Source of the DNA: Acidisarcina sp.
GTDB taxonomy: Bacteria; Acidobacteriota; Terriglobia; Terriglobales; Acidobacteriaceae
Assembly (NCBI GenBank): GCA_036401375.1
Contig: DASWVB010000013.1
Span: forward strand, 145,651 to 209,650
Reading direction: 5' to 3'
DNA length: 64,000 bases
The notes under the pieces are model-generated. The model saw only the letters and a program-made list of their open reading frames with translations, was not told where the DNA came from and ran no database searches. The translations under genes were made by a program, and so were the position numbers. Shown here one piece after another: positions 581 through 31,249 of this stretch (positions within the stretch are counted from its first letter, which is position 1; every line of letters starts with the position of its first letter).

Positions 581-1327
581 ATGGCTGCACCGATGCGTAC
601 CGCTATCGAGCACTACGAAAGCTTTCTCGCGGACCATTACACCTGGATGTCTGGCCCATATGCGGATAAGGTCACGCATCAGCATGGTTTGCTCAAGCGA
701 GCCGGCATTGTCCCGGCGGCAACCAGAGCGGCGGTCGACCTCGGCTGCGGTCCCGGGTCGCAGTCGATTGCACTTGCAGAGCTCGGCTTCTCAGTCACGG
801 CTATCGATGCGAATGCACAGCTGCTGGAGGAACTTCGCCAGCACGCGAAGGGTCTGCCAATCCGCCCAGTTTTGCATGACCTTTGCGCCCTGGCGACTTG
901 TTCCATGCTCCCTGCTCAGGTTGATGTTGCGATCTGCGTTGGAGACATCATTCCACACCTGCCCAGCATGGCTTGTGTCACGACGCTATTCAACCAAGTG
1001 AGCGAACTGCTGGTGTCCGGCGGCAAATTCATGCTTGGTTTCCGGGATCTTTCCGAAGAGCTTCATGGTCTTGATCGCTTCATCCCAATTCGCAGCGACG
1101 ACCAACGCATCATGACGTGCGTTCTGGAATACGAGCCAGAGACAGTCATCGTTCACGATCTTATTTATGTACGGCAGGACGGTCGATGGGAGCTTAACAA
1201 GAGTTCCTACCGCAAGCTTCGGCTCAGTCTTGATTGGGTTTGTACTAATCTCGAAGGCCAGGGCTTGATGGTCTCGCATAAGGAACAGACTGCCGGTGTC
1301 TGGACGATTGTGGCGTCCAAGGCTTGA
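581..1327 (+). CDS. Class I SAM-dependent methyltransferase
   Basis: Motif I 'VDLGCGPGSQSIALAELG' plus an acidic post-I residue ('AIDAN'). ATG start preceded by 'gagg'. Its stop abuts the selD stop on the opposite strand. Confidence 0.8.
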   Translation: MAAPMRTAIEHYESFLADHYTWMSGPYADKVTHQHGLLKRAGIVPAATRAAVDLGCGPGSQSIALAELGFSVTAIDANAQLLEELRQHAKGLPIRPVLHDLCALATCSMLPAQVDVAICVGDIIPHLPSMACVTTLFNQVSELLVSGGKFMLGFRDLSEELHGLDRFIPIRSDDQRIMTCVLEYEPETVIVHDLIYVRQDGRWELNKSSYRKLRLSLDWVCTNLEGQGLMVSHKEQTAGVWTIVASKA

Positions 1328-2404
1328 TTAGAGGAACCGGATGGGCTTACCTTCTCCACGCTCCAGCACTCTCCCGATGCGGGTGGCCGGCGTTCCAGCG
1401 GCGCGAGTGAGTTCTTCGAGCTGGACGGCGTCGCGAGGGTCAATCGAGATCAGAAGGCCGCCGGCGGTCTGCGGGTCGAAGAAGAGAGTCATAAGCTCTG
1501 GAGCGATGTTGAGGTTGGGTTCGACGACGCACTCGGCAAACTCGCGGTTCGTCACCAGACCGCCGGGAATGGTCCTGGCCTGCACACACTCGACCGCGCC
1601 GTCGAGCAGCGGAATATCGTTCATCACGAGCTCAAACGCGACGCTACTGGCGAGGGCCATCTCGCGCGCATGGCCGGCCAGACCGAAGCCAGTCACGTCG
1701 GTCATCGCGCTCACCCGAAGTCCGGCCTTGGTGATGGCGATCGCCGCGTTCTTGTTCAGTGTCGTCATGCTCTTGATCGCCGAGTCGATCCATGCCTGCT
1801 TCGCGAGGCCGCGTTTGATCGCAGTCGTGATCACGCCCGTCCCGATGGGCTTGGTGAGAAAAAGCACATCGCCGACCTGGGCGCCTTTGTTCTTGAGCAC
1901 GCGGTCCGGATGGATGGTGCCGGTAACAGCGTAGCCGAACTTCATCTCTGCGTCTTTCACGCTATGGCCACCGATCACGGCGCAGCCTGCCTCCAGCATC
2001 TTGGAAAGGCCGCCGGCCATGATCGCGCCGAGCGTATCGAGATCGCCGTCTTCCGGATAGGCGAGAATCGCAAGTGCGCTGATGGGAATTCCGCCCATCG
2101 CATATACGTCGCTCAGGGCGTTGGTCGCTGCAATCTGGCCGTAGGTGTAGGGATCGTCGACCATTGGAGTAAAAAAGTCGACAGTCTGCACCAGGGCGAG
2201 ATTGTCGGTCAGCTTGTAGATGCCGGCGTCGTCGGCCGTCTCGAATCCGACAAGCACGTTCGGGTTAGTTTGTTTAGGAAGTTGCGAGAGGACACGGTCG
2301 AGAATTTCAGGGCTGATCTTGCTGGCACATCCGCCGGCCTTTACCTGTGCGGTCAACCTGACCGGCGTGTTCGCTGGGACATTTTCAATCAGGGTTTCGC
2401 TCAT
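1328..2404 (-). CDS. selD: Selenide, water dikinase (selenophosphate synthetase), Cys-type
   Basis: N-terminal 'AQVKAGGCASKISPEILDRVL' matches the SelD Cys/Lys active-site loop. AIR-synthase-like fold motifs ('DDAGIY', 'VDFFTP', 'ALSDVYAMGG'). The ATG overlaps the upstream stop (ATGA). Confidence 0.9.
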   Translation of the reverse strand: MSETLIENVPANTPVRLTAQVKAGGCASKISPEILDRVLSQLPKQTNPNVLVGFETADDAGIYKLTDNLALVQTVDFFTPMVDDPYTYGQIAATNALSDVYAMGGIPISALAILAYPEDGDLDTLGAIMAGGLSKMLEAGCAVIGGHSVKDAEMKFGYAVTGTIHPDRVLKNKGAQVGDVLFLTKPIGTGVITTAIKRGLAKQAWIDSAIKSMTTLNKNAAIAITKAGLRVSAMTDVTGFGLAGHAREMALASSVAFELVMNDIPLLDGAVECVQARTIPGGLVTNREFAECVVEPNLNIAPELMTLFFDPQTAGGLLISIDPRDAVQLEELTRAAGTPATRIGRVLERGEGKPIRFL

Positions 2405-3480
2405 CCATTCACTCCTTGTGGATCCAAACCCAGATCAGAGGTGTGGGCCTCTCGCGCGAGCACAATCGTGGTGCATGCGCTCTCACTCTTGGGCATGTCG
2501 CGATGCGGCGCCATGGTCACGGTCAGCGGTTTGGTCTCCCCGCGCACGATAGGGCAGTAAAAGTCGGGCCTGGCCAGCTCATGATGCAGCCGCCTGCGGC
2601 CGGCGCATCCGCCGTGGCAAGCATCGACATGGGGGCAACTCTCGCAGGCTAGAGGCAGGGAGCGGGCATCCCGGAAGGGCTGCGTCTCCGTCACCTGCGA
2701 GCCCTGCTCGAGCAGCAGGCTCAGCGGATCGCCCTCGCCGGGCCAGTAGACGCATGGCTGCACGGTCGCACGAGGCGTAACCCGCACAGTGCCGCACCCG
2801 CATCCGCCCCTGCGTGCGGGAAGCCCGGCCATGGCGCGGACCAGCGGCTCACCCGTGCTGATGAGGTCCGTCTCTTCCAGCAGGATTTGAAAGCCCTCCC
2901 AGTACTCCTTGTAGGTGAGCGCGTAAATGTCGGTGCGCACCGATTGATATACGTTGATCCGCAGCGGCGCATCGTAGCGCTTGGCGATGCGCGCCACATT
3001 GGCTAGATTCCTGTAGTTCGACTTCATCATGACGGCGATGATGGTCACCGGCACTCCGGCCTTGCGGCACCGGGCAGCCTGGCGATGAATCAGCTCCCAG
3101 TTGCCGGCGCCGCGCTGGCCATCCTGCTGAGCGCGGTTGTCGTAGTCGAGCGAGAACTCAATGTCGGTAAAAAAGCCCAACTCCTCGTCGGTAAGCAGCT
3201 CTACGCTGTGGCCGTTCGAGGTCATCGTCATGCGCAGCGGCTGGTCCTTCAGCCATCCGATGATGGGGTGGAAATCGGGATGCATGCCATTCTCGCCGGT
3301 GCCCAGGTTGACCGATTTCACGGGCAGGGCGGCGAGTATCTGCTGCACCTCGTTGAGCGAGATACGGTCAAGACGCGCCGGGTCCCGGTAGCAGAACGAG
3401 CAGGCGAGATTGCACTCGTTCGTCAGCCCCAGACCGAGCGCGAATTGTGGCTCTTCTACCGCGGGAGTCTCCCCTGCCAT
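2401..3480 (-). CDS. Radical SAM enzyme with C-terminal SPASM-like Cys-rich domain
   Basis: CX3CX2C 'CNLACSFC' near the N-terminus. C-terminal Cys clusters 'GGCGCG...PCVYWP' and 'CESCPHVDACHGGCAG'. Start re-picked at Met164 of the track ORF (MAGETPAVEE), which lies downstream of the upstream permease stop at 3546. The 5' 163 codons of the track ORF overlap that permease and look like GC-rich noise. Confidence 0.8.
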   Translation of the reverse strand: MAGETPAVEEPQFALGLGLTNECNLACSFCYRDPARLDRISLNEVQQILAALPVKSVNLGTGENGMHPDFHPIIGWLKDQPLRMTMTSNGHSVELLTDEELGFFTDIEFSLDYDNRAQQDGQRGAGNWELIHRQAARCRKAGVPVTIIAVMMKSNYRNLANVARIAKRYDAPLRINVYQSVRTDIYALTYKEYWEGFQILLEETDLISTGEPLVRAMAGLPARRGGCGCGTVRVTPRATVQPCVYWPGEGDPLSLLLEQGSQVTETQPFRDARSLPLACESCPHVDACHGGCAGRRRLHHELARPDFYCPIVRGETKPLTVTMAPHRDMPKSESACTTIVLAREAHTSDLGLDPQGVNG

Positions 3481-3545
3481 CTCTTCGCCTCCCTTCCCTT
3501 CCACCGCAAAGTCCGCAAATCGTGGCACGTTCGTTGTCCGCCCTC

Positions 3546-5261
3546 TTACGTTTGCATCTCCATGCGCGCGCTGGGCTGACTTAGCCAGTCCGATGCGACC
3601 ACGAGCACGATGACCGCAGCGATCAGCGTTGAAACTTTGCCATAATCCCCTAACTGTACATCGTTGTAGAGTGCCTGACCGAGGCCGCCGCCGCCAACCA
3701 GGCCGAGGATCGTCGCCGCGCGCAGATTCATGTCCCAACGCAGCAGGATATAGCGGCGCATCATCGGCCAGGACTGCGGCAGCAGGGCCCAGAACATGCA
3801 TTGAAGCGGAGTGGCTCCAAAGGCCAGCAGCGCCTCCACCTGCTCCTGCGGGCTCTCCTCCATCGTCTCCGCGAAGAGCTTGCCCAGCACCCCGCCGGTG
3901 TGGAGTCCTAACGCGATCGCACCGGCAAAAGGGCCAAAGCCTACAGCGATCACGCAGACCAGGACCCACACGAGTTCGGGCGTCGCACGCAGCAGGTTCG
4001 AGACCAGGCGGGCTAGCCAGAAGACGACTTCACCCCGCATCCTGAGCAGCCAGGAGCGCTCAAGAGACTCATGCCGGGCGGAGCGCAGCCGGGTGGCGGG
4101 AAAGGCCAGCATCAGCCCAAGCACCGCGCCGGTCACGGTGCCGAGGACCGAAATACTGATGGTCTGTAGAGCGAGCACACCGACCTCGCGCAGAAACGCG
4201 GGCGACCACTCCGGCCTGAAGAGCGATCGAGCGAAGCGCGCCAGGTTGGGGATCGTATCGCTTGCGGCGAAGTTGTCCCAGCGGAGTCCAGCAACGGGCA
4301 GCGAGGCAAAAAGCACGCCGAGCAGCGCGACACCGATGAAGGAACGGCTGACGAGAGGCCGCTTGAAAACGTCCCCTCGCTTCGACGCTCTGACACCCGT
4401 TTCGGACGGGGTGACAATGCGCCCTCGCATCGCGCGGCTCAGCAGGTCGACGAGAAAGAGCAGCAGCACGAAGCAGCCAATGAGAGTTAGCACCTGGGAG
4501 AATTCGAAGAGCCGGGATGACAAGCTGATTTCATATCCAAGGCCGCCCGCTCCCACAAAACCCAACACAGCCGCCGACCGCACGCAGCATTCGAAGGAGT
4601 AGAGCGTGTAAGAGGTGAGCAATGCACGGCTCTGCGGCAGGATGCCAAAGAGCAGCATCTGCAGGCGGGTCGCACCCAGCCCACGCAGTGCTTCGAGCGG
4701 CCTTACGTCTGCTTCGTCGAAGATGTCCGCATAGACGCGGCCAAGCAGCGCGGTGTACGAAATAACGAGCGCAAGCGTGCCTGGCAGCGGACCGAGACCC
4801 AGTCCCGCGACGAAGAGCAGGGCCCAGACCAGGTCGGGAACGGAGCGGATGACGCCCATAACGTGCAGGGTCATCCAACTCAGCGCCTTCAAAATTGATG
4901 GGCCGCCCTGGTCATCCGCGATACCGTTCCTCCACAGGCGCCCGCTGGCCAGAACGCCCAGCGGCATCGCGAGCGACGCCGAGAGCACGGTCGCCACCAC
5001 GGCGGTCGCTGCCGTCGTCAGCGTGGCGCGAAGAGCCACCTTCAGGAAGCTGAAGGAGAGGTCGGGCGGGAAGAGCCGAACCAGTAGGTCGGCAATCGAT
5101 GTCCACATCTGGTGCGAGACCAGCAGGCGCAGATCGACATGGGCGTTCCACCCAGCCAAGACCACGAGGACGATAAGTCCCAGCGGAAATCTCCACCTGT
5201 CGACTGCGCCGAAGCGCGGTTTAACGAAGGCAGGCGCGCTTCTGGTGATCGTCGGCGCCAC
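3546..5261 (-). CDS. ABC transporter permease, fused double PhnE-like (phosphonate/oxyanion type)
   Basis: 571 aa, polytopic, with two repeated permease halves of the PhnE/BPD_transp_1 type. Lies between PhnC-like and radical SAM genes in the same orientation. Confidence 0.8.
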   Translation of the reverse strand: MAPTITRSAPAFVKPRFGAVDRWRFPLGLIVLVVLAGWNAHVDLRLLVSHQMWTSIADLLVRLFPPDLSFSFLKVALRATLTTAATAVVATVLSASLAMPLGVLASGRLWRNGIADDQGGPSILKALSWMTLHVMGVIRSVPDLVWALLFVAGLGLGPLPGTLALVISYTALLGRVYADIFDEADVRPLEALRGLGATRLQMLLFGILPQSRALLTSYTLYSFECCVRSAAVLGFVGAGGLGYEISLSSRLFEFSQVLTLIGCFVLLLFLVDLLSRAMRGRIVTPSETGVRASKRGDVFKRPLVSRSFIGVALLGVLFASLPVAGLRWDNFAASDTIPNLARFARSLFRPEWSPAFLREVGVLALQTISISVLGTVTGAVLGLMLAFPATRLRSARHESLERSWLLRMRGEVVFWLARLVSNLLRATPELVWVLVCVIAVGFGPFAGAIALGLHTGGVLGKLFAETMEESPQEQVEALLAFGATPLQCMFWALLPQSWPMMRRYILLRWDMNLRAATILGLVGGGGLGQALYNDVQLGDYGKVSTLIAAVIVLVVASDWLSQPSARMEMQT

Positions 5262-6129
5262 CGGGGCCTCCCGCAGGATCGAGTGTGGGAAGGCGTGCGG
5301 CTTGCTCGTGTGGTTCGTTCAGTTCTCTCGGCTCGTGCGGTTTGACTGAACGGTGATAAAGCTGGGTGAGCGATTTTTCCTCGAGATCCGAGGTAGGCAG
5401 GTCGAAGGCGACCTCGCCGGTGCGCAGCCCGACCACTCGCTTCGAGTGACGGCGGGCGAGTTCCACCTGATGGAGCGAGATCAGCAGGGTGAGATGCGAG
5501 TCCTCCGCAAGCCGCACCAGCAGGTCGAGGATCTCATCCGACAGCACGGGATCGAGCGAGGCGACCGGCTCGTCGGCAAGAATCACCTCCGGCTGCTGCA
5601 TGAGCGTGCGAGCAATCGCGAGGCGCTGCTGCTGGCCGCCGGAGAGTTGGCTGCAGGCACTTCGCCACTTTTCCTTAAGACCTACCGCCTCGAGGCAATG
5701 CTCGGCGCGTTCGACCTCCGCTGCCTTCGGGGTGACCAGGTTTCGCACCGTGCTGGCGATCCCCCATCGCCCCAGCGCGCCGCTCAATGTGTTCATCAGG
5801 GCAGACATGCCTGGGACCAGGTAGTGCTGCTGGTAGATGCAGCCGATCCGGCAACGCATCTGCCGCAGGTCGGCCTGCCCCATGGAAGAGACGTCGGCAG
5901 TGCGATAGAGCAACTTGCCCGCGGAGGGAAAGATACTTGCATTGAGCAAGCGAAAGAGAGTCGTCTTGCCCGAGCCGGAGGGGCCAAGCAGGACTACCTG
6001 GTCGCCCTGTGGAATGTCGAGGGTGATGTTTTGAAGCGCAACCGAAGGCCGGTCTCCGTCTCCGAAGGTGCGGCCGACTCCGCGAAGACTATAGATCGAT
6101 GGGCTATCGATCTTTGGGCTGAAGTTCAA
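5221..6129 (-). CDS. ABC transporter ATP-binding protein, PhnC-like
   Basis: Walker A 'GPSGSGKTT', ABC signature '[15 protein letters not shown]', Walker B 'ILADEP'. 4-nt overlap with the upstream binding-protein gene. Confidence 0.85.
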
Positions 6130-7019
6130 TGCAGCAGTCCCGCACTCGTCGCCGCGCCCCGCAGCTTTTCATAGTCCGCATCGTTCGCGGTCACATACCC
6201 CTTCGAGTTCAGAAGGTCGAGCAGCGCCTTCTGATCCGGGTTGTCCGCGCTCAGGCCCTTCATCGCATTGGCGAAGGACTCGGCCACCTTGGGATCGAGG
6301 TTCTTGTTGGCCACCCACACGTAGTCGAAAAACGGCGGCGTGGTGTAGAAGACGCGCACCGCATCCGGCTTCAGTTGGCCGTTGGAGGTCATCTTCTTGT
6401 ACACCAGCTCATCCATCGATCCAGCCTCGGCCTTGCCGTTGGCCACGGCGAGCGCCGTGGCGTCGTGCGCGCCGCTATAGCTCGCGTTCTTGATCACAGC
6501 CGGGTCGACCTTCTCCTGCTGCATGTAATACAGCGGCATCAGGTGGCCGGAGGTCGAGTTGACGTCGCCAAAGACGAAGTGGCCGTGCAGGTCGGCCAGC
6601 GAGTGGATCTTCGAATTCGTCTGGGTGATGAAGACGGAATGAAACTGCTGGTCGATGGTGCGCTGCACCAGGGGCTTGACGCCGGCCCGCGCAGACGCCT
6701 GCACATAGGTGAAGCCGCCCAGGTATGCGATGTCCACCTTGTTGTTGACCAGGGCCTCGACCACCGCCGCGTAGCTGGTCGGTATCGTCAGATCCGGGGT
6801 CAGCCCGGTCTGCTTCTGCCAGTAGCCCAGTAGAGGCTGATTGTCACGCAGGGCCTTGCCCGGGTCCGTAGTCGGAATCATGCTGATGCGCAGCTTGGTT
6901 TCGGGTGCAGGCCCGGAGTGGCAACCAGCAAGAACAACCAGCGCGAACATTGCCGCGAGGGCAAACCTATTCAGAGTAGGGGCAGCGAACTGCTTTGGCC
7001 GGGCATTCCAATCGCGCAA
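6126..7019 (-). CDS. PhnD-family periplasmic substrate-binding lipoprotein (phosphate/phosphite/phosphonate-like; possibly selenate-type)
   Basis: Lipobox 'VLAGC'. PhnD-like motifs 'TSYAAVVEALVNNKVDIAYLGGFTYV' and 'GDVNSTSGHLMP'. First gene of the operon. Confidence 0.85.
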   Translation of the reverse strand: MRDWNARPKQFAAPTLNRFALAAMFALVVLAGCHSGPAPETKLRISMIPTTDPGKALRDNQPLLGYWQKQTGLTPDLTIPTSYAAVVEALVNNKVDIAYLGGFTYVQASARAGVKPLVQRTIDQQFHSVFITQTNSKIHSLADLHGHFVFGDVNSTSGHLMPLYYMQQEKVDPAVIKNASYSGAHDATALAVANGKAEAGSMDELVYKKMTSNGQLKPDAVRVFYTTPPFFDYVWVANKNLDPKVAESFANAMKGLSADNPDQKALLDLLNSKGYVTANDADYEKLRGAATSAGLLH

Positions 7020-7329
7020 GGCTTTGTCTCCGGAGGACGTTCAACTGCGTGTTTGACGAACCCATCCTAGCAGACGGGAGATGGGCCCCGTGCCGCCTCG
7101 GTCGCGCTCGGCAAGCAGCACGTCGAGTCCCAGGCTACGACCCGGCGCGACCAGCGAAAACTGTACCACCACGTGCGTCGTCCAACCGCCTTCACCAAAT
7201 ATGGGTTGAACGCATCGACGATCTAGTTCGTTCTCATTCGGCGTCAGCCCCCATCGCGATATACGCAAGGTTAGATCATCCACCGGCCTACAAGGTTACG
7301 AGTATTTTCTTGATGAGTGCACTGACTCG

Positions 7330-7552: not shown

Positions 7553-9106
7553 TTGTTTCAACTTAGCGAGCAGTCCCTCCAGCGAGGCTTCGAAACGATC
7601 CAGCATCACGGATACAGTGATTTCTTCCCCTCGCCGCCAGAATGGGCTGGGGTCGAAGCGGGCTGGCAGGAGCTGAGACCTATGCTTGCGGAGTTTGACC
7701 TGCAGAAGTACACCCCGTATCGCCCTATCTATGCCCACGCACCGAAGTCGAAGATCAACTTGCGTCCCGTTACGCTGCTCCATCCGGTAGATCTCATCTT
7801 GTACAGTTCGCTGGTGGTGGATCTCACAAACGAGATTGACGATAAACGAATTCGGGAGACGGACGACCGCGTCTTTTCTTTCAGATTGGGATCTGCTCGC
7901 AACGAGCTGTATGCATCGGAACCGAGTCACGCAGAGTTTGAAGCCCAAAAGCGCGTGCGTGCGCAAGCTCAGCTGTCTGGTTACATAGGCTTCGCAGACA
8001 TTACGGATTTCTACTCTCGCCTATATCAGCACAAAGTCCGGGGCGCTTTGGACGCCTGTGTGGATGGCGTTCCCAAGCTAGGGCCCTACCCAGGAATCAT
8101 CGAAGGTTTGCTACGCAATCTTACGCACGATGGACTTAGCTATGGCATTCCAATCGGACCACCGGCTTCCAGACCCTTGGCGGAAGCTGCTTTGATCGAC
8201 ATCGACGATGAGCTGCTCGGGAGTGGCATCGACTTCATCCGCTACATTGACGACTACGTTTTCTTCGCTTCAAGCAGAGAGAAGGTGGAGTGGGCTATAC
8301 GAACGCTCGGTCAACTCTTGGATAAGCGGCAGGGGTTATCGCTCCACGCAGCGAAGACGAAGGTGATGAAGTGTAAGAAATATCTGGAAGCGCACGGCGA
8401 TGATGAGGAAGCAGAAGATTCGGTCGAATCCCGTTTCGCGAAGCTGATTGAAGAGCACTTCTATGATGACGATAGTGGGCGTTTGCTCGACGAGCTGTCA
8501 GCTGAAGAAAAGGAAGCTCTAGAAGCGGTCGATTTGGAGGAGATCCTGACCGAAGCGCTTGATGAGGATGAGATTGACTACAAGAAGGTCGCATTCATCC
8601 TTCATCGACTTTCCAGCTTCGAACGCAATGACTTAATCGATATCGTGTTGGATCATCTTCCTCGTCTGTATCCGGTGGCCCATGCTCTTCACGCATTCTT
8701 CCGGAATGTCGAGCCTATCGATCCAGAAATGCGAAAGAAGTGTGCCGTTAAGCTTCTAGCTCCCATCACAGCCTCCGGCGATGCCCAAGCGCCTGAGTTC
8801 TATGCGATTTGGATACTCGATCTTTTCGGGACGAACCCTATTTGGAATCAGGCAAACGAGCTTGGGACGGTGTTCAAGACTACTCCGTCTCAAGCGGTGA
8901 GGCGTTACGCTGCTCTCGCTCTCTCTGCCAGCGGTCGCCGATCACAAGCTCTGTCATTCAAAGATGCTTTCCAATCGTCGGAACCTCTGACCCGTCTGGC
9001 ACTCTTGCGGGGCAGCCGCAAACTAGGAGCAGACGAACGCAAGCATTGGCTTGCACGGGTGCAGCTAGATTGGTTTGAGAAGTTCGTGAAGAAGCATCAG
9101 ACCTAG
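7553..9106 (+). CDS. Reverse transcriptase, UG/Abi-like (defence-type), with C-terminal alpha-helical repeat domain
   Basis: RT motifs in canonical order: 'APKSKINLRPVTLLHPVDLILYSSLV' (1-2), 'FADITDFYSRLYQH' (3), 'GIPIGPPASRPLAEAAL' (4), 'IRYIDDYVFF' (5, YxDD at nt 8243-8254), 'LSLHAAKTKV' (6-7). About 230 aa helical C-terminus. No maturase/X domain, no En domain, no retron 'VTG' motif. TTG start 5 nt after AGGAGG. Confidence 0.85.
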   Translation: MFQLSEQSLQRGFETIQHHGYSDFFPSPPEWAGVEAGWQELRPMLAEFDLQKYTPYRPIYAHAPKSKINLRPVTLLHPVDLILYSSLVVDLTNEIDDKRIRETDDRVFSFRLGSARNELYASEPSHAEFEAQKRVRAQAQLSGYIGFADITDFYSRLYQHKVRGALDACVDGVPKLGPYPGIIEGLLRNLTHDGLSYGIPIGPPASRPLAEAALIDIDDELLGSGIDFIRYIDDYVFFASSREKVEWAIRTLGQLLDKRQGLSLHAAKTKVMKCKKYLEAHGDDEEAEDSVESRFAKLIEEHFYDDDSGRLLDELSAEEKEALEAVDLEEILTEALDEDEIDYKKVAFILHRLSSFERNDLIDIVLDHLPRLYPVAHALHAFFRNVEPIDPEMRKKCAVKLLAPITASGDAQAPEFYAIWILDLFGTNPIWNQANELGTVFKTTPSQAVRRYAALALSASGRRSQALSFKDAFQSSEPLTRLALLRGSRKLGADERKHWLARVQLDWFEKFVKKHQT

Positions 9107-9147
9107 CCTGCCAACTTCAGATTCGCTGCTCGTGGTCTCTGCCCACA

Positions 9148-9912
9148 ATGTCTGGTGAAGCGCGTAAAATAAGCGCCATGTCGAGATGCACAGCGCCTTC
9201 CAGAGGCCACCACACAGCGTCAGGTCGAGCGAATTGCCCCGCCTGCGGCGGCAGTTCCGGGCGTTGGGGTGGCGGATATAACAGCTACTCCTATCCGTCA
9301 TATTCGATTTCTGCCTCCTCATCGGTTAGTGCAAGCCGTTCTTCCGGAGGTAGCGGAGGCGGTGCAGGCGGTAGTGCTCGACCACGGTGGTCACCGGTAG
9401 GATCGTCTGTCTCTTACACGCCTTCCGAAGTCCGTGCGCTCACGCCATTCCGCGAGGCGTTAGAGAAAAGCGGCCCAAAGCCAGACAAGCGCGACATCTT
9501 CCTGTGCCACGCTTGGGACGACCGTGCTACATCGGCAAAAGAGCTTCACGACCTACTCGAATCTCTTGGGGTCAAGGTTTGGTTCAGCGAAAAAGATGTG
9601 CTGCTCGGCACGCCGCTGATGCGTGAGATCGACAAGGGCTTGGCGCAGTCTCGTGTGGGCATTGTGTTGGTCACCCCGGCCTTTTTGACGCGCATAAAGA
9701 ACTCCGGGATCGCAGAAAAAGAGCTGTCGGTGCTTCTGGCTAGGGATCAACTCATTCCGATCATGCACGGCACCACCTTCGAACAGTTATTGGACGTTAG
9801 TCCGATGCTCGCATCCCGCAGCGGCCTGAGTACGAAGGAAGTCGACATGGCAAACGTAGCCACGAAACTCAAGGAACTGATGCCACTGTTTCCCGACACG
9901 CCTCTCAACTAG
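9148..9912 (+). CDS. TIR-domain protein with N-terminal Cys/His zinc-knuckle-like segment and Ser/Gly-rich linker
   Basis: TIR hallmarks 'DIFLCHAWDDR...', 'VKVWFSEKDVLLGTPLMREIDKGLAQSRVGIVLVTPAFL', and 'SGIAEKEL' as the candidate catalytic Glu region. N-terminus 'CTAPSRGHHTASGRANCPAC'. Low-complexity linker 'SYSYPSYSISASSSVSASRSSGGSGGGAGGS'. Lies 41 nt downstream of the RT gene, same strand. Confidence 0.85.
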   Translation: MSGEARKISAMSRCTAPSRGHHTASGRANCPACGGSSGRWGGGYNSYSYPSYSISASSSVSASRSSGGSGGGAGGSARPRWSPVGSSVSYTPSEVRALTPFREALEKSGPKPDKRDIFLCHAWDDRATSAKELHDLLESLGVKVWFSEKDVLLGTPLMREIDKGLAQSRVGIVLVTPAFLTRIKNSGIAEKELSVLLARDQLIPIMHGTTFEQLLDVSPMLASRSGLSTKEVDMANVATKLKELMPLFPDTPLN

Positions 9913-10471: not shown

Positions 10472-10972
10472 GTGACAATGACTACGGACTCAATCTCGAC
10501 CAAAACAGTTACCAGCCAGCCCGAAGCGGCAATAGGGTTGGCGATGGTGCGTTTGACGATCGGCGCATTGTTCGTTTGGGCGTTTTTTGAAAATCTGGGG
10601 AAGGGCCTCTACACCCCGGCTGGTTATGCGAGCCTGATAAACCACTACATTCAGGCCGGTCATTCTCCTGCTGCGTGGAAGGCGGTGATGGCGCTGGCGG
10701 CGAGCCACTCCGCGATGGCTGCTCCGATGCAGGGCTTGACGGAGATTTCTCTCGGCATTCTGCTGGTCATCGGTCTGCTCACACGCCCTGTCGCCTTCGT
10801 GGCGTTCCTGTTTCTCACAAGCCTTTGGGTATCGGAGTGGGGAACCGCGTGGATCTGGGAGCTGCTTGTTCCGGTGCTCGCATCGCTCGCGCTCAGTGTG
10901 GGACGTGCCGGGCGGCGATGGGGCATTGACGCGTGGTTGTCGCAACGGTGGCCATCTTCTCCCTGGTTCTGA
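10472..10972 (+). CDS. DoxX-family integral membrane protein
   Basis: Four predicted TM helices. 'LAMVRLTIGALFVWAFFENLGKG' resembles DoxX/DoxD. Its stop lies 4 nt before the GT2 start. Confidence 0.65.
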   Translation: MTMTTDSISTKTVTSQPEAAIGLAMVRLTIGALFVWAFFENLGKGLYTPAGYASLINHYIQAGHSPAAWKAVMALAASHSAMAAPMQGLTEISLGILLVIGLLTRPVAFVAFLFLTSLWVSEWGTAWIWELLVPVLASLALSVGRAGRRWGIDAWLSQRWPSSPWF

Positions 10973-10976
10973 TCGG

Positions 10977-11678
10977 GTGAGAGTGTCGGTCATCATCCCC
11001 ACCCACAATGAAGCAGGAGCGATAGAGCGCGTATTGGCGGACCTTCCCGCCGATCTCACGGCGGAGGTCATCGTCGTCGACAGCAACTCCGGTGATGGGA
11101 CGCCCGAGATCGCCGCGAGAATGGGGGCTCGGGTCCTTCGAGAGCCGCGGCGTGGATATGGGCGGGCCTGCCTGACCGGTCTGGCTGCTGCAGATTCTCC
11201 TGACGTGGTCGTCTTCCTTGACGGCGACTACAGCGATCGGCCTTCTGAGTTGTCGATTCTGTTAGCGCCAATCCTGGAAGGGCGTGCAGACATCACGCTT
11301 GGGTCCCGCGTGCAGCGTTCGGCCGGCGCGTTGCCCTGGCATCAGATGTTCGGTAATCGTGTCGCAGTCAGCCTGATCGGGCCTTTATATGGACTCAAAA
11401 TCACTGATCTAGGCCCGTTTCGAGCTGCCCGTGCAGAGGTAATACGCGCGCTCGCCCTCGAAGAGACGACCTATGGCTGGGCGGTTGAGATGGTGCTCAA
11501 AGGTGCGCTTGCCGGATACCGCGTGATCGAAGTTCCGGTGAGCTATCATCCGCGCATCGGAACATCGAAAATCAGCGGTACGCTGAAGGGCACGATCGGG
11601 GCCGGCTGGTTCATTCTCAGTTTAGTAGTGCGCTACTATTTCCGAGACCTGAAGGCAGGAAGACCACGGCGCGCGTAG
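10977..11678 (+). CDS. Family 2 glycosyltransferase (polyprenyl-phosphate sugar synthase-like)
   Basis: 'VSVIIPTHNEAGAIERVL', 'VIVVDSNSGDGT', 'FLDGDYSD' (DxD). GTG start re-picked at Val38 of the track ORF, just after the DoxX stop. Confidence 0.85.
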   Translation: MRVSVIIPTHNEAGAIERVLADLPADLTAEVIVVDSNSGDGTPEIAARMGARVLREPRRGYGRACLTGLAAADSPDVVVFLDGDYSDRPSELSILLAPILEGRADITLGSRVQRSAGALPWHQMFGNRVAVSLIGPLYGLKITDLGPFRAARAEVIRALALEETTYGWAVEMVLKGALAGYRVIEVPVSYHPRIGTSKISGTLKGTIGAGWFILSLVVRYYFRDLKAGRPRRA

Positions 11679-11717
11679 GCCGGCGTCGAATTCCATGAGA
11701 TTTCGTGCGAGGCGATT

Positions 11718-12425
11718 GTGAGTCTGCCGGGTAGTGACCGTGTGCTGGTAATCATGGCGAAAGCACCGCGGCCGGGTACGGTGAAGACCCGCTTGACTGC
11801 GGGCCTTCCCGTCGATGCGGTCACCGGGCTTTATCGCTGTCTCTTGCGCGACACGCTGGCGCTGGCCGGGTCATTGGGCGACGTGGAGGTTGCCATCATG
11901 TGCCCGCGCGCGGACGTGGACGAACTGACGCAGTTTGCCGGTGAGGAAGCAAGCGTACTGGCGCAGACAGGAGAAGGTCTTGCTGCAGGCCTTGCATCAG
12001 TGTTTGCGCACTTCGCACGAGATCAGCAACGACCCACCATTGCCTTCAACAGCGACAGCCCTCATCTGCCGCGTTCCGTTCTCGAGCACGCCTTTGAAAA
12101 GCTGGTGGCGCATGATGTGGTGGTGGGGCCAACGGAAGACGGAGGTTACTATCTCGTCGGTGCAAAGGCATCACATCCGACTCTTTTTGAACGCGACGGA
12201 ATGGGTACCAGCAGTGCGCTCGAGACACTCCTGTCCCGCGCGAAAGTCCTTGAGCTCGATGTAGTTTTCGCAGACCCTTTTTACGACATCGATGTAGCTG
12301 CCGACCTGACACGTCTTACAGAGGAGTTGCGTCTGGCTCCGACGAGAGCGCCCCGGACGGCGCGGTGGCTTGCAGAGTGGGAGCTTGCGGCGGCCCAATC
12401 ACGAACGGGCACGGGAGAGTTGTGA
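11718..12425 (+). CDS. DUF2064 / TIGR04282-like nucleotidyl- or glycosyl-transferase-like protein
   Basis: 'VLVIMAKAPRPGTVKTRLTAGL...LYRCLLRDTL' and 'GPTEDGGYYLVG' are typical of DUF2064. Confidence 0.8.
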   Translation: MSLPGSDRVLVIMAKAPRPGTVKTRLTAGLPVDAVTGLYRCLLRDTLALAGSLGDVEVAIMCPRADVDELTQFAGEEASVLAQTGEGLAAGLASVFAHFARDQQRPTIAFNSDSPHLPRSVLEHAFEKLVAHDVVVGPTEDGGYYLVGAKASHPTLFERDGMGTSSALETLLSRAKVLELDVVFADPFYDIDVAADLTRLTEELRLAPTRAPRTARWLAEWELAAAQSRTGTGEL

Positions 12426-13723
12426 AGTTCACCCCCGCGTGGAGAGTGTGCATACTCGGCGCCATCTTGTGCCTGGCCCTGAGTGTCTGCTCACGCAACT
12501 TCGGCGACAGGGGTGGACCGTACTTCATGGCGTCCTTGACGGTGGCGGGCATCGCGTACCTCCTGGCAGTCCGTGAGTTTTTCGCGACGCCAGGAATCTC
12601 CCGACGCGGGATCGTCATTGCGCTTATCCTGGCTGCCGGGTGGCGCATCGAATTCCTACGGCTGTCCCCACAGGCGGACGAGGATATTTATCGATACGTC
12701 TGGGATGGACACCTTCAGAGGCTCGGCTATAACCCATATATAGTCGTCCCGAGCGATCCTGCCGCCAACGGGCTGCATACCCCGGAAACTCGCAATTTGA
12801 ACAACCCCGATCTACCCAGCCCCTATCCGGCCGGGGCGCAGCTATTCTTCCGCGCGGTAACATCCATCCACGAATCTACATTTGCGATGAAAGTCGCGTT
12901 TGTAATTTGCGATTTTGCAATTGTCCTCGTCCTGCTCGATGTCCTGCACTATAGTGGGCGGGCGGCGCACCTGGTTCTGGTGTACGCCTGGAACCCATTG
13001 CTGGCTGTTGAGGTGGCGGGAAGCGGTCACATCGATATCGTTGGCGCGCTATTGTTGCTGGTGTCGGTTGCTGCGCTGGGGCGCCGATGGCGGGCGACGG
13101 CGGCGGTGGCACTTGGTCTGGCTATAGCAGTGAAATTTCTGCCGATCGTGCTCCTGCCCCTTTACTGGAAGCGCGTCCGCATTCGCGACGCGGCGCTGGC
13201 GGCAGCGGTGTTCGGACTCCTGTATCTGCCATTTCTCAACCACGGCCACGTTCCGATCGGCTCGCTTGGTGCGTATGTGCAGAGTTGGCGCTTCAATGGT
13301 CCGGTGTTCGCCGTATTCGATCGATTGGCGTCTCCAAAGGTGCTGGCGGCGCTGGCACTGTTCGCCGGGTTTGGAACTGCGACCTGGCTAAGAAGAGCAG
13401 GGCCCGAGTGGTTTCCGGAGCTACTTGTATGGCCAATGGCCGCTGCTCTTGTGTGCGCTCCGGTGGTCTACCCGTGGTATCTGCTATGGCTGCTGCCATT
13501 TCTGACGTCAGCCTCGACGTGGCTGATCGTTCTTTGGACTGTGAGCATCTTCCCGACCTACATTGTCTGGCACCTGCGGACGCTCGGACGTCCATGGGGG
13601 CCGCTTCCTAAGTGGGCGATGGTGCTCGAATACGGATGCCTGGCTATTGCTGCTGCAATTTTCTGGTTGCGCCGTGGGAGGAGGCCCGAGCACGCTGGCG
13701 CTGCATCAGGCGGGAGAGTATAG
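12422..13723 (+). CDS. Polytopic GT-C-type membrane glycosyltransferase (DUF2029/GT87-like)
   Basis: More than 9 TM segments. 'DIYRYVWDGHLQRLGYNPY' loop motif. GTG start overlaps the upstream stop (GTGA). Confidence 0.7.
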   Translation: MKFTPAWRVCILGAILCLALSVCSRNFGDRGGPYFMASLTVAGIAYLLAVREFFATPGISRRGIVIALILAAGWRIEFLRLSPQADEDIYRYVWDGHLQRLGYNPYIVVPSDPAANGLHTPETRNLNNPDLPSPYPAGAQLFFRAVTSIHESTFAMKVAFVICDFAIVLVLLDVLHYSGRAAHLVLVYAWNPLLAVEVAGSGHIDIVGALLLLVSVAALGRRWRATAAVALGLAIAVKFLPIVLLPLYWKRVRIRDAALAAAVFGLLYLPFLNHGHVPIGSLGAYVQSWRFNGPVFAVFDRLASPKVLAALALFAGFGTATWLRRAGPEWFPELLVWPMAAALVCAPVVYPWYLLWLLPFLTSASTWLIVLWTVSIFPTYIVWHLRTLGRPWGPLPKWAMVLEYGCLAIAAAIFWLRRGRRPEHAGAASGGRV

Positions 13724-13777
13724 TTTGGTTTCCGCCATACTTGACAACGTCCGTTCAACCGTAAGAGGGGGACTTCA

Positions 13778-14524
13778 ATGACGAAATCGAGCTCTCGTTT
13801 TATAACTCCTGTTCTCGTTCTCTCCGCACTCGCCTCTGCGCTGGTGGTTGCACCCAACTCCATGGCGCAGAAACGCCCACCAATTCTCGAACAGATTGCC
13901 AAGACTTATGGCATTGATTCCTTCAAACAGATTGAAGCAATCCGTTATACGTGGAACGGGCAGTTTCCCGGGGTGAACATCGCCCACGCCTGGGTTTGGG
14001 AGCCCAAGACCGGAAAAGTTTCCTATGAAGGAAAGGACAAGGACGGCAAGCCGGTAACAGCTACCTTTGTTGAGTCGCAGCTCAGCAGCGCACCCGCAAA
14101 CGTCAGGGATGAAGTTGCGCCATCTTTCGTCAACGATAACTACTGGCTTATTTTTCCCCTACATGCCTACTGGGACGGCAGCGCTACCGTGACTGATCAA
14201 GGTATGCAGAAACTGCCGATCGGCAACGGTTCGGCCACCCTGGTCTCAGTTAAGTATCCCGTTGAGGCGGGCGGCTCCACCCCTGGAGACACCTGGGACC
14301 TGTATGTCGGCGCCGACAAGCGGGTGCAGCAGTTCGTCTACCACCGGCGCGGAACGAGGAAGCCCAGTACCGTCATTGCGACCTGGGCGGGCAATAAGAA
14401 AGCTGGCCCTCTTCTCATCTCAACGGAGCACCGCGGAACCGCCGATGGAGGCCCGCTGCACATTTTTATTTCTGATGTGGCAGTTAAGCTGACAGGCTCC
14501 GATAGGTGGATAAAAGCGCAATAA
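13778..14524 (+). CDS. Secreted hypothetical protein
   Basis: Signal peptide 'MTKSSSRFITPVLVLSALASALVVAPNSMAQ'. No recognised family. Confidence 0.65.
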   Translation: MTKSSSRFITPVLVLSALASALVVAPNSMAQKRPPILEQIAKTYGIDSFKQIEAIRYTWNGQFPGVNIAHAWVWEPKTGKVSYEGKDKDGKPVTATFVESQLSSAPANVRDEVAPSFVNDNYWLIFPLHAYWDGSATVTDQGMQKLPIGNGSATLVSVKYPVEAGGSTPGDTWDLYVGADKRVQQFVYHRRGTRKPSTVIATWAGNKKAGPLLISTEHRGTADGGPLHIFISDVAVKLTGSDRWIKAQ

Positions 14525-14818: not shown

Positions 14819-17800
14819 TCAGACGCCCAACCGGGCGTACTCCGCCTTGGCTTGCATCAGGACTGGGACGTCAGGGTCTGCGTCTTTCCAGATGGTTAGA
14901 AAAGCTTGATAGGACTTGCGCGCCGCGACCTTGTCGCCCATGAGAACGTCGGAGCGACCAAGCTGCAGGTAGGCCAGAGCTCCGATGACATTGATCTTGA
15001 CGATGGCCGGTCGGTCGATCAACTTTTGAAACTCCGCCGCCGCCTCTCTGCCACTGCCTAATTGCAGGTATGCAAGACCGCGGATATAGGCTGGATATAG
15101 ATTATCGAATGACTGTGTGTAAGCTAGCTCGTACTTTTCCAATGGTCGCAAAATCTCAATCGCCCTTTCCGGATTGTTGTTGTTCAATTGGATGGCTGCC
15201 CGTATCGTAGGCAGAATGAACCGTTGCGAGAGTGTATCCTGCGGGGATTCGCGGTCTAGTGCAGTTGCTAGACCGGCAGCCCGCTCACCGTCGCCCAAAA
15301 AAGCAAGCAGGAGGGCCAGAAACTGGCGACTTCCGCGATCCTGAGGCATTAGGCTAAATTGCTTAGCGCGTCTTGCTGCATCCGCTTTCTGCCCAACCTC
15401 AGCTTCGTCTAGAGCGATCTCAAGATTGCTTGGATCAGCCTGATCGAGAGCGTTGTTCTTCTTTGGAGCACGCACAGCTTGCTGAAGCAATTGGCGAGCT
15501 TGGGTGAAGCGTCCACCGTAAGCCTCTAATCTACCCTTCATCCTAAAAGAAGGATCTGAGATATTGTCACCTCGCGCCTGAAGAAATTGCTCCTCCATGG
15601 CGCGCTTGTTATGCTGCAAAAAAGCCACCAAAAAAAGGCCTCCGCGCAAACTTGGGCTATCTTCTTTGCGAGCTTTAGCCTGAGCGTAGACAAGCTTGGC
15701 TTCCTCTAAATGGCCCGCAGAGACGGTCGCAGTCATCAATTCGTAATAGCTTCCGGGGCCAAGCAACGGCATCAGACGCAGAGCTTCCCGTTCTTCCGCA
15801 GCCGATTCGTCATAGCGGCCTAGTTGTAATAGGCAAGCCGCAAAATTTATGTGTGCTACTCCGTCCAGCGGAAAGGTTCGCACCCATTCCTGGTAGATGG
15901 GATACGAGCTATCCAGATCCCCCAACCCAACATTTAAATAGAGAGTCTCCGCGAGGAATTTAAGCTGGCCGGTCAGTCTGTCGCGCAATTCGTATGCTTT
16001 CTTCTCAGCTGCCAGGGCCCGCTCGGCTCTGCCCACATCCCTGTAAATGATCCCGAGCGACGCATAGGCCAAAGCAAAGTTCGGATCCAGATCGACGGCG
16101 CGCTCGTAGTAAGACGCCGTGGTGGCGTGATCCCCCGACAAATGGATCTTGAATCCGCTGTGGAGAGACTGTATGGCTTCGAGAGAGGATGACGTTGCCA
16201 GTTCCAACGGCGTGTTGAATCTGTTCACAGACTCGGCCGGCTCGCCCATGCGGCCCCGGAGTTCGGCGCCGGCTAAGCCCAGCGCATGCACGATGTCCGT
16301 GCGCAGAGGCGCAACCTGCTTTGCCCTGGCGAAGATCTTGCCGCTCCGGCAATTGACGCCGGTCAGGGTAATTTGAAAGTGGTTGCCTACATCCGCAATG
16401 GAGCTGTCGATCACCGCCTTGCTGTTGGTTTGGAGGCAAACCTCGCGCGCAATCTCCGGGGTGATTTTGCCGTCCACCGGATGTTTGTGGTCCTTCATCG
16501 TTTCCCGCACTTTATCTTGCGCGAGCACCTGGAGGAAGGGTGTCTGCGACAGTTCAACCGGAATCGCAAGATTGAGAGCATCGTCCAGAACGGTGTCGCT
16601 GGTCTGGTTGGTTAAGTCGGCAATCACAATCGTGTCGGTAGCGGTCAGTTGGTAACGGGTGAGATAGCGGTAGAGAGCGTCCGCTCCACCGGCAAAAACA
16701 AGGAGAAGGACAGCCAAGCCTAGCCATTTGCGGATGCGGTGCATCCGTAGTTTGCGCTGGCCTCGGACCAGTTCGATGTCGGCGCGCATCTCGGCCGCTG
16801 ACTGGTAGCGTTGTGCGCGATCCTTGCTCATCGCTTTCGCAATAACGGCTTCCAAAGCGCCTGGTACAGTGGGATTCAAGTCGTGGACCGGAATGGGCGT
16901 CCGATGCAGGGTTGCTTCATGAATGCCAGTAGCGTTGTTGCCCGTGAACGCCCGCGCGCCCGTTGCCATCTCATACAGAACAAGGCCGAAGGAAAACAGG
17001 TCGGTGCGGGCGTCCAGTTTTTCTGTCCGAATCTGCTCAGGAGACATATAGCTGGCCGTACCCATGGCCAAGCCGGTGCGGGTCAGATTTGTGTCGTCGA
17101 TTGGAAGCATCGGAGCGCCAGCCGATCCATTGACATACCCCGCCCGCGCCTCTGCTTCCATCTCTGTCTGCTCTTCGGACTCGACTAACTTGGCCAGTCC
17201 GAAGTCCAGAATCTTTGCGGGACCGGCATTGGTGAGAAAAATGTTGGCGGGCTTGATGTCGCGGTGAACGATGCCTCTTTCATGAGCGGCCTGCAGACCG
17301 TCGCAGATTTGAATCGCAATTTCGAGGAACTGGTCCAGGGGCATCCGCGTCGGATGATCAGCGGCCAAACGATCCCGAAGTGTCAAGCCGTTGAGCAACT
17401 CCATCACGATGAGGGGCTGCCCCCCGAACTCTTCGATTGTGAAGATGGTGCAGATGTTGGGATGGTTCAGAGACGAGGCCGTTTTCGCTTCCCGCTCAAA
17501 TCGTTTGAGGGCGGCCGGGTCGCTGGCCAGCTCTTCCGGCAGGAATTTGAGCGCCACCGGGCGGCTCAGCTTCAGGTCCTCAGCCCGATATACGACTCCC
17601 ATGCCGCCGCCACCGATCATCTCGATTACACGGAAGTGCGATACTTTTTTTCCGATGAGTCCGGAACTGGCGGGCAGGACTTCCGATTGCTCAGGGAAAG
17701 GGCTTACCTTTGCTTCAAATTGTGGAGGATCATCAATTGGCTCAATCCACTCCGCTGGAACGACTAGCCGGTAGCCTCGTCGGGCGACGGTCTCGATGTA

Positions 17801-18181
17801 ACTGGGCTGGGCTGCCGAGTCGCCGAACGCTCTGCGCAAAGTGCCGATCGCTACATTGATATTGTGGTCAAAATCGACGACAGTGTCGTTGGGCCACAGT
17901 CTCCTCCTGATTTCCTCACGCGACGCCAGGCCGCCGCCACACTCGACCAGGAAAACGAGCACCCGGAATGGCTGCTCCTGAAGCAGAACCCGCCGGCCAA
18001 CAGAATCACCCTCACACGCGCACAGTTCTCCGGTTTTCAAATCGAGCTCGAACGACCCGAGCCGCACACGGGTTGAATCCTCTGTTTTCACTGATTCGGA
18101 ACCATTGCAAAGGCGGGGTGCGGAAGCTTGGTCGAAAGGAATGGGCTCAGACACGTCGATTCTAAGGGATTTCCATATCAA
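14819..18181 (-). CDS. Multidomain Ser/Thr protein kinase: N-terminal OmpR/CadC-type winged-helix domain, Hanks kinase, TM segment, C-terminal TPR array
   Basis: wHTH 'RLWPNDTVVDFDHNINVAIGTLRRAF...RRGYRL'. Kinase motifs 'GGGGMGVVY', 'VALK', 'HRDIKPANI', 'DFG', 'SPE'. Long TPR-like repeats. Confidence 0.9.
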   Translation of the reverse strand: MIWKSLRIDVSEPIPFDQASAPRLCNGSESVKTEDSTRVRLGSFELDLKTGELCACEGDSVGRRVLLQEQPFRVLVFLVECGGGLASREEIRRRLWPNDTVVDFDHNINVAIGTLRRAFGDSAAQPSYIETVARRGYRLVVPAEWIEPIDDPPQFEAKVSPFPEQSEVLPASSGLIGKKVSHFRVIEMIGGGGMGVVYRAEDLKLSRPVALKFLPEELASDPAALKRFEREAKTASSLNHPNICTIFTIEEFGGQPLIVMELLNGLTLRDRLAADHPTRMPLDQFLEIAIQICDGLQAAHERGIVHRDIKPANIFLTNAGPAKILDFGLAKLVESEEQTEMEAEARAGYVNGSAGAPMLPIDDTNLTRTGLAMGTASYMSPEQIRTEKLDARTDLFSFGLVLYEMATGARAFTGNNATGIHEATLHRTPIPVHDLNPTVPGALEAVIAKAMSKDRAQRYQSAAEMRADIELVRGQRKLRMHRIRKWLGLAVLLLVFAGGADALYRYLTRYQLTATDTIVIADLTNQTSDTVLDDALNLAIPVELSQTPFLQVLAQDKVRETMKDHKHPVDGKITPEIAREVCLQTNSKAVIDSSIADVGNHFQITLTGVNCRSGKIFARAKQVAPLRTDIVHALGLAGAELRGRMGEPAESVNRFNTPLELATSSSLEAIQSLHSGFKIHLSGDHATTASYYERAVDLDPNFALAYASLGIIYRDVGRAERALAAEKKAYELRDRLTGQLKFLAETLYLNVGLGDLDSSYPIYQEWVRTFPLDGVAHINFAACLLQLGRYDESAAEEREALRLMPLLGPGSYYELMTATVSAGHLEEAKLVYAQAKARKEDSPSLRGGLFLVAFLQHNKRAMEEQFLQARGDNISDPSFRMKGRLEAYGGRFTQARQLLQQAVRAPKKNNALDQADPSNLEIALDEAEVGQKADAARRAKQFSLMPQDRGSRQFLALLLAFLGDGERAAGLATALDRESPQDTLSQRFILPTIRAAIQLNNNNPERAIEILRPLEKYELAYTQSFDNLYPAYIRGLAYLQLGSGREAAAEFQKLIDRPAIVKINVIGALAYLQLGRSDVLMGDKVAARKSYQAFLTIWKDADPDVPVLMQAKAEYARLGV

Positions 18182-18336
18182 TACACCGCAATTTCTCCTG
18201 GAAAATAGGCAAAACCGCGATTGACCGACAATTGACCGCCAGTGTCTTTACTCCGGACCCATGTCGGGTCACCTTGGAACGGCTGCTGCTGCTTTCCTGT
18301 GGCAGACACCGAATTCATCCAGAGGCGGTTTCCAAG

Positions 18337-31182: not shown

Positions 31183-31249
31183 CCCCCCGCATCATTGCAT
31201 CCGCAGTGCAGGCCCACCGCGACCGCAGCCGCGATCTGAGAGGTGGCTC

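Follow-up and report, generated by a model that had tools for sequence, protein, structure and literature searches.

What does a selenophosphate-forming enzyme do in an operon with an ABC importer and an enzyme of the radical S-adenosylmethionine (SAM) type? The question is raised by a 64-kb stretch of DNA from Acidisarcina sp. (contig DASWVB010000013.1), here called the window, to whose full length all coordinates refer. On its minus strand five co-directional genes run in the order periplasmic binding protein (SBP), ATPase, fused double permease, radical SAM enzyme (rSAM below) and selD, the gene for selenide water dikinase; open reading frames (ORFs) and family scans agree with this order, which an earlier note on the DNA had given. 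The note took the genes for a possible orphan selenium-utilization operon, with rSAM as a selenium-handling or Se-C bond-forming step. From gene context we now read them as the selenium-supply arm of a larger, two-operon system, in which a (methyl)seleno-pentose would be loaded onto a polyprenyl-phosphate carrier and from there reach an envelope glycan, and we assign this reading a probability of roughly 0.45. Its chemical steps we infer from gene content, family assignments and recurrent linkage, which are themselves observations.

The selD gene (1328..2404, minus strand) is of the Cys type. Its product scores 369.5 bits over its full length with the hidden Markov model (HMM) TIGR00476 (curated cutoff 125), a search that the earlier note had called for, and 323 bits with NF002098 (cutoff 299). 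The GGCASK motif pointed out in the note (GGC26ASK29) aligns with GC17GCK20 of E. coli SelD (3U0O), so that the catalytic C17 and K20 are conserved as C26 and K29; judged by its sequence, this is a genuine selD with intact catalytic residues. To our knowledge selenophosphate has only a handful of specific biological uses: selenocysteine, selenouridine, the Se-Mo cofactor and selenoneine/ovoselenol. Family scans found no selA, selB, selU, yqeB/C or senA/B among the large ORFs of the window, in keeping with the note; a tRNA scan for tRNA-Sec found no tRNA in the window, and an Rfam scan for SECIS-like RNAs (selenocysteine insertion sequence) found no match there.

The genes are tightly packed. 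The junction of rSAM and selD (...GTGAATGGATGAGC...) is a true ATGA overlap, and it is kept in at least six close relatives, across the window's clade. The overlap of SBP and ATPase, for which ATGA had also been claimed, is indeed 4 nt long but reads TTGA. A 41-nt overlap of ATPase and permease holds provided that the permease starts at GTG 5261, and a similar overlap is present in relatives. The plausible start of rSAM is ATG 3480, preceded by GGGAGG, with GTG 3528 as an alternative, which puts the start 17-65 nt downstream of the permease stop depending on the choice. We did not accept the long ORF at 2401-3969 as the gene for rSAM. The 163 codons with which it begins run into the permease and have no counterpart in any homologue; the homologues start at ATG 3480, and the extension to 3969 is an artefact.

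Among the objections that would count against its idea, the earlier note listed rSAM orthologues in other taxa that are not linked to selD. We called and clustered ORFs in 80 genome loci with 10-kb flanks around rSAM relatives, ignoring several 'conserved' ORF clusters that were antisense shadows of real genes. Of these loci, 23-24, from four phyla, have selD no more than 10 kb from rSAM. The chance expectation for a single-copy gene in a 5-Mb genome is ~0.4%, so the enrichment is ~75-fold. The linked loci fall in five separate clades of the rSAM tree and show four arrangements: co-directional, divergent, convergent and with a fused SelD. In the window's clade selD is downstream and translationally coupled; it is divergent and upstream in four loci (L010, L029, L036 and L037), convergent in two (L024 and L057) and a few kilobases away in two more (L014 and L023), while in Alphaproteobacteria it is part of an oxidoreductase-SelD fusion. 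The linkage of rSAM to selD is recurrent and independently assembled, and because it recurs in other taxa that objection falls away. In a published survey of genes overlapping selD, the top ten include no radical SAM enzyme, and in the literature searched we found no prior description of the rSAM-selD pairing.

The most constant neighbours of rSAM are other genes. They form with it an apparent operon of rSAM, a DoxX gene, a family 2 glycosyltransferase (GT2), a TIGR04282/DUF2064 protein, a membrane protein of ~444 aa and a secreted protein of ~246 aa. This cassette is linked to rSAM in 60 of the 80 loci (47 of the 56 with full flanks), in both orientations relative to rSAM and in four phyla, also outside Acidobacteria. 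In the window, where the earlier note had missed it, it occupies 10472-14524 on the plus strand, divergent from the selenium operon. Its first gene encodes a DoxX-family small membrane protein (10472..10972; PF07681, 26.7 bits), and in most related loci this gene directly follows rSAM. Next comes a GT2 resembling polyprenyl-phosphate sugar synthases (10866..11678, true start probably near 10980; PF00535, 89 bits), which among NCBIfam models comes closest to AglJ (120 bits), dolichyl-phosphate hexose transferase (102 bits) and PpgS without reaching the cutoff of any; with TIGR04283 it scores 50.7 bits against a cutoff of 182. The third gene product, a CofC-like (nucleotidyl)transferase (11718..12425; DUF2064, CofC), does pass the cutoff of TIGR04282 (145.4 bits, cutoff 134), a family that NCBI, as with TIGR04283, names for arsenosugar biosynthesis. 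The polytopic membrane protein at 12365..13723 is a probable GT-C glycosyltransferase with a weak GT87 match (19.3 bits, gathering score 25); its Bosea homologue weakly resembles alpha-1,6-mannopyranosyltransferase, and candidates of this kind are present in 58 of 80 loci. The last gene (13778..14524) encodes the secreted protein, which lacks any Pfam or NCBIfam match and is found in 55 of 80 loci. Since a glycosylation cassette is the constant partner of rSAM, a modified sugar carried on a lipid is now a likelier product than an unspecified Se-C compound: of the selenium-handling role proposed earlier, the link to selD stands, while the partners point to this different kind of product. No prior description of the rSAM-headed cassette was found in the literature searched.

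A methyltransferase also travels with the system. Convergent with selD and abutting it, at 581..1327 on the plus strand, is a gene overlooked by the earlier reader for a SAM-dependent, weakly TehB-like methyltransferase that we call MT248 (Methyltransf_25, 46.5 bits; TehB, 26.6 bits against a gathering score of 20.4). Its homologues adjoin selD in 14 related loci in several orientations, and this type of methyltransferase is a specific companion of stand-alone selD. A methyltransferase of some kind is beside rSAM in 65 of the 80 loci; where selD is absent, a CmoM-like one lies directly upstream of rSAM. The accompanying methyltransferases reach at most ~48 bits on ArsM-type models and do not qualify as ArsM. 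The metagenome-assembled genome CAWAAG01 carries two rSAM cassettes (L029 and L051), one with selD and a TehB-like methyltransferase and the other with a CmoM-like methyltransferase, which suggests two functionally distinct versions.

Alphaproteobacteria, including the cultured Bosea vaviloviae SD260, have the system in another form. SelD is there fused to an NADH oxidoreductase (TIGR03169, 459 bits; TIGR00476, 297 bits), and it is accompanied by an SBP that is a bona fide TIGR04553 member (360 bits), by another kind of methyltransferase, by a phosphorylase of the PNP/UDP family and by c24, a DoxX-like membrane protein. Beside the rSAM locus of Bosea (NZ_LGSZ01000008, 12740-17113 of our locus L047) are a ptxABC-like transporter, a PtxD-like D-2-hydroxyacid dehydrogenase and a LysR regulator that comes nearest, though under the cutoff, to 'selenium metabolism-associated LysR'. 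These ptx-like genes, found at this one locus, make up a second transporter operon, distinct from the TIGR04553/SelD-fusion transporter on the other side. A sister clade of rSAM at ~45% identity, from metagenome loci (L087-L166), has the same partners and a second rSAM, in the order GT2, rSAM, second rSAM, GT-C, TIGR04282 (e.g. L088, L091 and L109), often with a methyltransferase and a c24-like protein. The second rSAM is also present in Bosea (L047, 1117-2187).

The rSAM itself (2401..3480, minus strand) belongs to the radical SAM superfamily by its CNLACSFC motif, in which C23-x3-C27-x2-C30 is invariant, and by its PF04055 score (42.3 bits, threshold 29.5). Seven C-terminal cysteines (C227, C243, C279, C282, C288, C292 and C309) are likewise invariant and have SPASM spacing. 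The SPASM label of the earlier note is thus supported by this pattern and by fold matches but not by domain models: TIGR04085 gives 25.7 bits against a cutoff of 27, and the Pfam scan reports PF04055 only and not PF13186. Near the first SPASM cysteine, residue 230 (window ~2791-2793) is Ser in >85% of loci without selD, and four of the five clades with linked selD have Gly, Ala or Asn there; this is the sole recurrent difference found between the two groups, and it is weak. No NCBIfam cutoff is reached by rSAM (best MftC, 72 bits vs 265) and none by its relatives at 33-50% identity; the nearest named families of either are the peptide maturases MftC and GeoRSP. The best 25 of the 31 NCBIfam matches of rSAM do not include ArsS (TIGR04167). 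Its predicted fold matches SuiB, anSME and BlsE at TM 0.5-0.6, also SkfB and PqqE, and enzymes with nucleotide or sugar substrates (BlsE, viperin, MoaA and DesII) match about equally well. We tried to assign a function by sequence and fold searches of the PDB, but the matches, generic SPASM, twitch and viperin ones at TM 0.5-0.6, do not discriminate. More than 7,000 proteins match rSAM at E <= 1e-5, many of them general radical SAM relatives, and relatives occur in at least 590 species-representative genomes. Identity is 64-70% among members from Acidobacteriota, Verrucomicrobiia, Alphaproteobacteria, Rhodanobacteraceae and Myxococcales. The idea of a selenium-specific rSAM subtype was given up, since residue comparison yielded three weak positions.

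On the supply side, the SBP (6126..7019, minus strand) is a PhnD-superfamily protein (PF12974, 227 bits). Among NCBIfam models it matches best to TIGR04553, the 'putative selenate' clade that the earlier note had named; this clade is indeed the nearest family, but at 226.2 bits the curated cutoff of 250 is not reached. It also scores 189 bits with TIGR01098 (cutoff 112) and 167 bits with PhnD (cutoff 261). The ATPase (5221..6129, minus strand) is PhnC-like (TIGR02315, 236.6 bits, cutoff 266; PF00005). The permease (3546..5261, minus strand) has two stretches matching PhnE (TIGR01097, 402 bits) and two BPD_transp_1 domains, in accord with a fused double permease. Taken as a PhnCDE phosphonate importer, the set therefore passes on PhnE (402 vs 216.7) and fails on PhnC and PhnD. 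The SBP shares an operon with selD, which is the genomic association of the TIGR04553 type, and it tracks selD across loci: 18 of 21 related loci with this SBP also have selD (Fisher p ~1e-10, phylogeny ignored). From this context we infer a selenium oxyanion, selenite or selenate, as the ligand; we know of no measured ligand for the TIGR04553 family. Compared with TIGR04553/PhnCDE transporters in general, the architecture of SBP, ATPase and PhnE permease, the selD neighbourhood and the best HMM of the SBP are the same, while the SBP of the window falls under the cutoff, with 27% identity to a bona fide member, and its permease is a fused double PhnE.

Two described pathways, which have a TIGR04282-type transferase together with a GT2 as their common theme, resemble parts of this gene set. 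In arsenosugar synthesis ArsS attaches a 5'-deoxyadenosyl group to dimethylarsenite (PMC13598754). In Mycobacterium tuberculosis, methylthioxylose (MTX) derives from methylthioadenosine; the GT2 MtxS (Rv0539) loads it onto decaprenyl phosphate and the GT-C MtxT (Rv0541c) transfers it outside the cytoplasm (PMC11127046, PMC8780516, PMC12088412). The arsenosugar cassette (ArsM, ArsS TIGR04167, TIGR04282 and TIGR04283) shares with ours a methyltransferase, a radical SAM enzyme, a TIGR04282 protein and a GT2. It differs in that our rSAM is SPASM-type and unrelated to ArsS, none of the methyltransferases is an ArsM, the GT2 is of the AglJ/DPM kind and does not reach the TIGR04283 cutoff, GT-C, DoxX and the secreted protein are added, and the element linked is selenium instead of arsenic. 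MTX capping resembles the putative roles of our cassette in its GT2 for a polyprenyl-phosphate-linked modified pentose and its GT-C transfer outside the cytoplasm, and a 5'-substituted adenosine is the source of its sugar, a 5-deoxy-5-(methyl-chalcogen) pentose (PMC11127046, PMC8780516), but it manages without a radical SAM enzyme, SelD or a dedicated transporter and takes its sulfur from ordinary methylthioadenosine. A third comparison is with the selenoneine/ovoselenol clusters (SenA/SenB/SenC), which also have a dedicated SelD within a small-molecule cluster and a sugar carrying selenium at some stage, and which are often near a 'putative selenate' ABC transporter (bioRxiv 10.1101/2022.04.13.486033). 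The window, however, lacks SenB (TIGR04348) and any SenA/EgtB homologue, and here selenium transfer would be radical SAM-based and the product lipid-linked or glycan-bound.

Joining a probable MTX-type back end (GT2 and GT-C) to an arsenosugar-type front end (methyltransferase, rSAM and TIGR04282) gives the pathway that we propose. The transporter would import selenite or selenate, and after reduction SelD would convert the selenium to selenophosphate. The TehB-like methyltransferase and rSAM would then bind the selenium, as a (methyl)seleno group, to carbon of a pentose or nucleoside. Most economically, the 5'-deoxyadenosyl radical would attack a methylated selenium species and form the bond at C5' of adenosine, yielding the selenium analogue of methylthioadenosine, as the equivalent of what ArsS does with dimethylarsenite; sugar epimerization and chalcogen insertion via auxiliary clusters are alternative reactions for rSAM. 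The sugar would be released and activated to a nucleoside diphosphate (NDP)-sugar by the TIGR04282 protein, loaded by the GT2 onto polyprenyl phosphate and flipped across the membrane. Finally, the GT-C would transfer it to a periplasmic or envelope glycan, comparable to the MTX capping of mycobacterial lipoarabinomannan. We hold the specific form of this idea more tentatively and with some doubt: that it is a further, so far undescribed, SelD-dependent use of selenium, in which the SPASM enzyme forms the C-Se bond, probably by adenosylating or alkylating methylated selenium, and a seleno-pentose is displayed on an envelope glycan by way of polyprenyl phosphate and the GT-C. In that form it would stand beside arsenosugars and the mycobacterial MTX cap as their selenium counterpart, widespread in soil Acidobacteria and in some Alphaproteobacteria.

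If true, two pieces of chemistry would be new: C-Se bond formation by a radical SAM enzyme and a sugar on the cell surface that bears selenium. An abundant soil-bacterial rSAM family and TIGR04282/DUF2064 would gain a function, and the arsenosugar and MTX pathways would be joined in one enzymatic theme. Whether MTX-type modification exists outside lipoarabinomannan is unclear according to the authors of PMC11127046; the cassette suggests that it does, and widely. We found no prior description of this system in the literature on DUF2064/Rv0540 and TIGR04553. Because the locus is present in a cultured organism, Bosea vaviloviae SD260, the idea is directly testable.

A number of observations weigh against the seleno-pentose reading. 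About 70% of the rSAM loci have no selD within 10 kb, and rSAMs with and without linked selD are not set apart by consistent residues, so the chemistry of rSAM may not involve selenium at all; loci without selD nearby may draw on a selD at another place in the genome, or they may make an analogue with sulfur or something else. No member of this rSAM family has been characterized, and every functional statement about it comes from gene context; it is unrelated to ArsS, and neither TIGR04283 nor ArsM is matched above cutoff. The window SBP is under the TIGR04553 cutoff (226 vs 250) and shares just 27-28% identity with a true TIGR04553 protein and likewise with the Ptx-like SBP of Bosea, and at this equal distance our attempt to assign its ligand by similarity failed. 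In the window an inserted defence module splits the two operons and c24 is decayed (see below). In the MTX analogy the assignment of Rv0540, which lies between Rv0539 and Rv0541c, to DUF2064/TIGR04282 is tentative. SelD itself is a further point. SelD-centred context look-ups found relatives at 62-77% identity elsewhere in acidobacterial contigs without rSAM, and one, 65% identical to that of the window, stands beside selA and selB on an acidobacterial-type contig (L085, 6612-11071), so this SelD lineage also serves selenocysteine synthesis. Acidobacteria do use selenocysteine, and the SelD here may also, or mainly, serve it. Linked and unlinked SelD copies are not separated in the SelD phylogeny. 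With close relatives standing without rSAM or beside selA-selB, the 'orphan' operon that the earlier note held possible is more than the evidence can bear, and we dropped it as a claim, along with that of a 'dedicated SelD clade'. The loci without selD, these SelD relatives, their mixed phylogeny and the lack of selD-specific residues in rSAM would all be expected of a general selenium-supply operon, in which SelD serves selenocysteine or selenouridine elsewhere and rSAM is a mere or co-regulated neighbour, the cassette making a sulfur or non-chalcogen sugar, e.g. an MTX-like one, with rSAM as epimerase. We consider this unlikely, though it is the strongest competitor, for it leaves aside the conserved ATGA translational coupling, the ~75-fold enrichment over chance, the independent recruitment in five clades and four layouts, which include a different SelD architecture and transporter lineage, and the dedicated methyltransferase that accompanies selD.

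The remaining alternatives keep fewer of the genes together. That rSAM is a peptide or protein maturase, installing selenium (or a thio- or selenoether) from SelD in a ribosomal peptide or in the 246-aa secreted protein, is suggested by MftC and GeoRSP as its nearest named families, by SuiB, anSME, SkfB and PqqE among its best folds and by the conservation of that secreted protein in the cassette. Yet the rSAM core starts at about residue 13 with no N-terminal extension, so there is no RRE/PqqD domain, and the flanking intergenic gaps of 5-90 nt leave no room for a precursor gene, the two hallmarks of maturases of ribosomally synthesized peptides. The constant partners are glycosyltransferases and a nucleotidyltransferase in place of peptidases or exporters, and BlsE, viperin, MoaA and DesII fit the fold about as well, which makes a maturase improbable. 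Still less do we expect an organometalloid pathway for arsenic (or tellurium or antimony), in which methyltransferase, rSAM and TIGR04282/GT2 would build an arsenosugar-like product and selD would be incidental. The above-cutoff TIGR04282 match, with its family name, and the weak ArsM or TehB likeness of some accompanying methyltransferases are what one would look for, but TIGR04167 is missing among the best 25 of 31 rSAM matches, the ArsM and TIGR04283 cutoffs are not reached, the window has no ars resistance genes, and the association of SelD with TIGR04553 is specific to selenium. Least probable of all, in our estimate, is uptake of phosphite or a phosphonate by the PhnCDE-like transporter, with the cassette adding a phosphorus compound to a glycan. 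The permease does exceed the PhnE cutoff, the SBP is in the phosphate/phosphite/phosphonate superfamily and as near to a Ptx-like SBP as to TIGR04553, and a ptx-like operon adjoins the Bosea locus. That operon, however, is a separate second transporter at a single locus, the best HMM of the window SBP is TIGR04553 and this SBP co-occurs with selD. The note had named a ptxD or phn C-P lyase next to these genes in relatives as evidence against its idea; neither the window nor the set of conserved gene families of the related loci contains ptxD, htx, a phn C-P lyase or any gene for phosphonate synthesis.

The ancestral layout is preserved in relatives (L005 and L001), where the two divergent operons are ~1.3 kb apart with the DoxX-like gene c24 in the gap. 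c24 is intact in relatives, where it precedes the SBP gene and co-occurs with selD. In the window tblastn recovers its C-terminal ~40-50 residues only (7056..7299, minus strand), at 87% identity to L001, and blastn shows a ~430-bp internal deletion relative to L001; because of this deletion it is a pseudogene here. The gap also holds a ~3-kb insertion that L005 and L001 lack. Its genes lie at 7553-9912 on the plus strand: a defence reverse transcriptase of the Drt8 type is encoded at 7553-9106 (PADLOC, 371 bits), and a TIR protein resembling ThsB at 9148-9912 (354 bits).

Directly after the glycosylation cassette, at 14819-18181 on the minus strand, is a gene for a 1120-aa protein that joins a DNA-binding domain of the OmpR type to a Ser/Thr kinase domain and TPR repeats, followed by a FixJ-like response regulator (18232-19176). 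Farther on, at 29674-40841 on the plus strand, a separate, uncharacterized cluster has four B12-binding radical SAM genes and, besides a twitch/SPASM radical SAM gene and a NanM-like sugar O-methyltransferase, two methyltransferase genes, of which one is a fusion with an amidohydrolase domain; after the cluster comes a TonB-dependent receptor (41947-44739).

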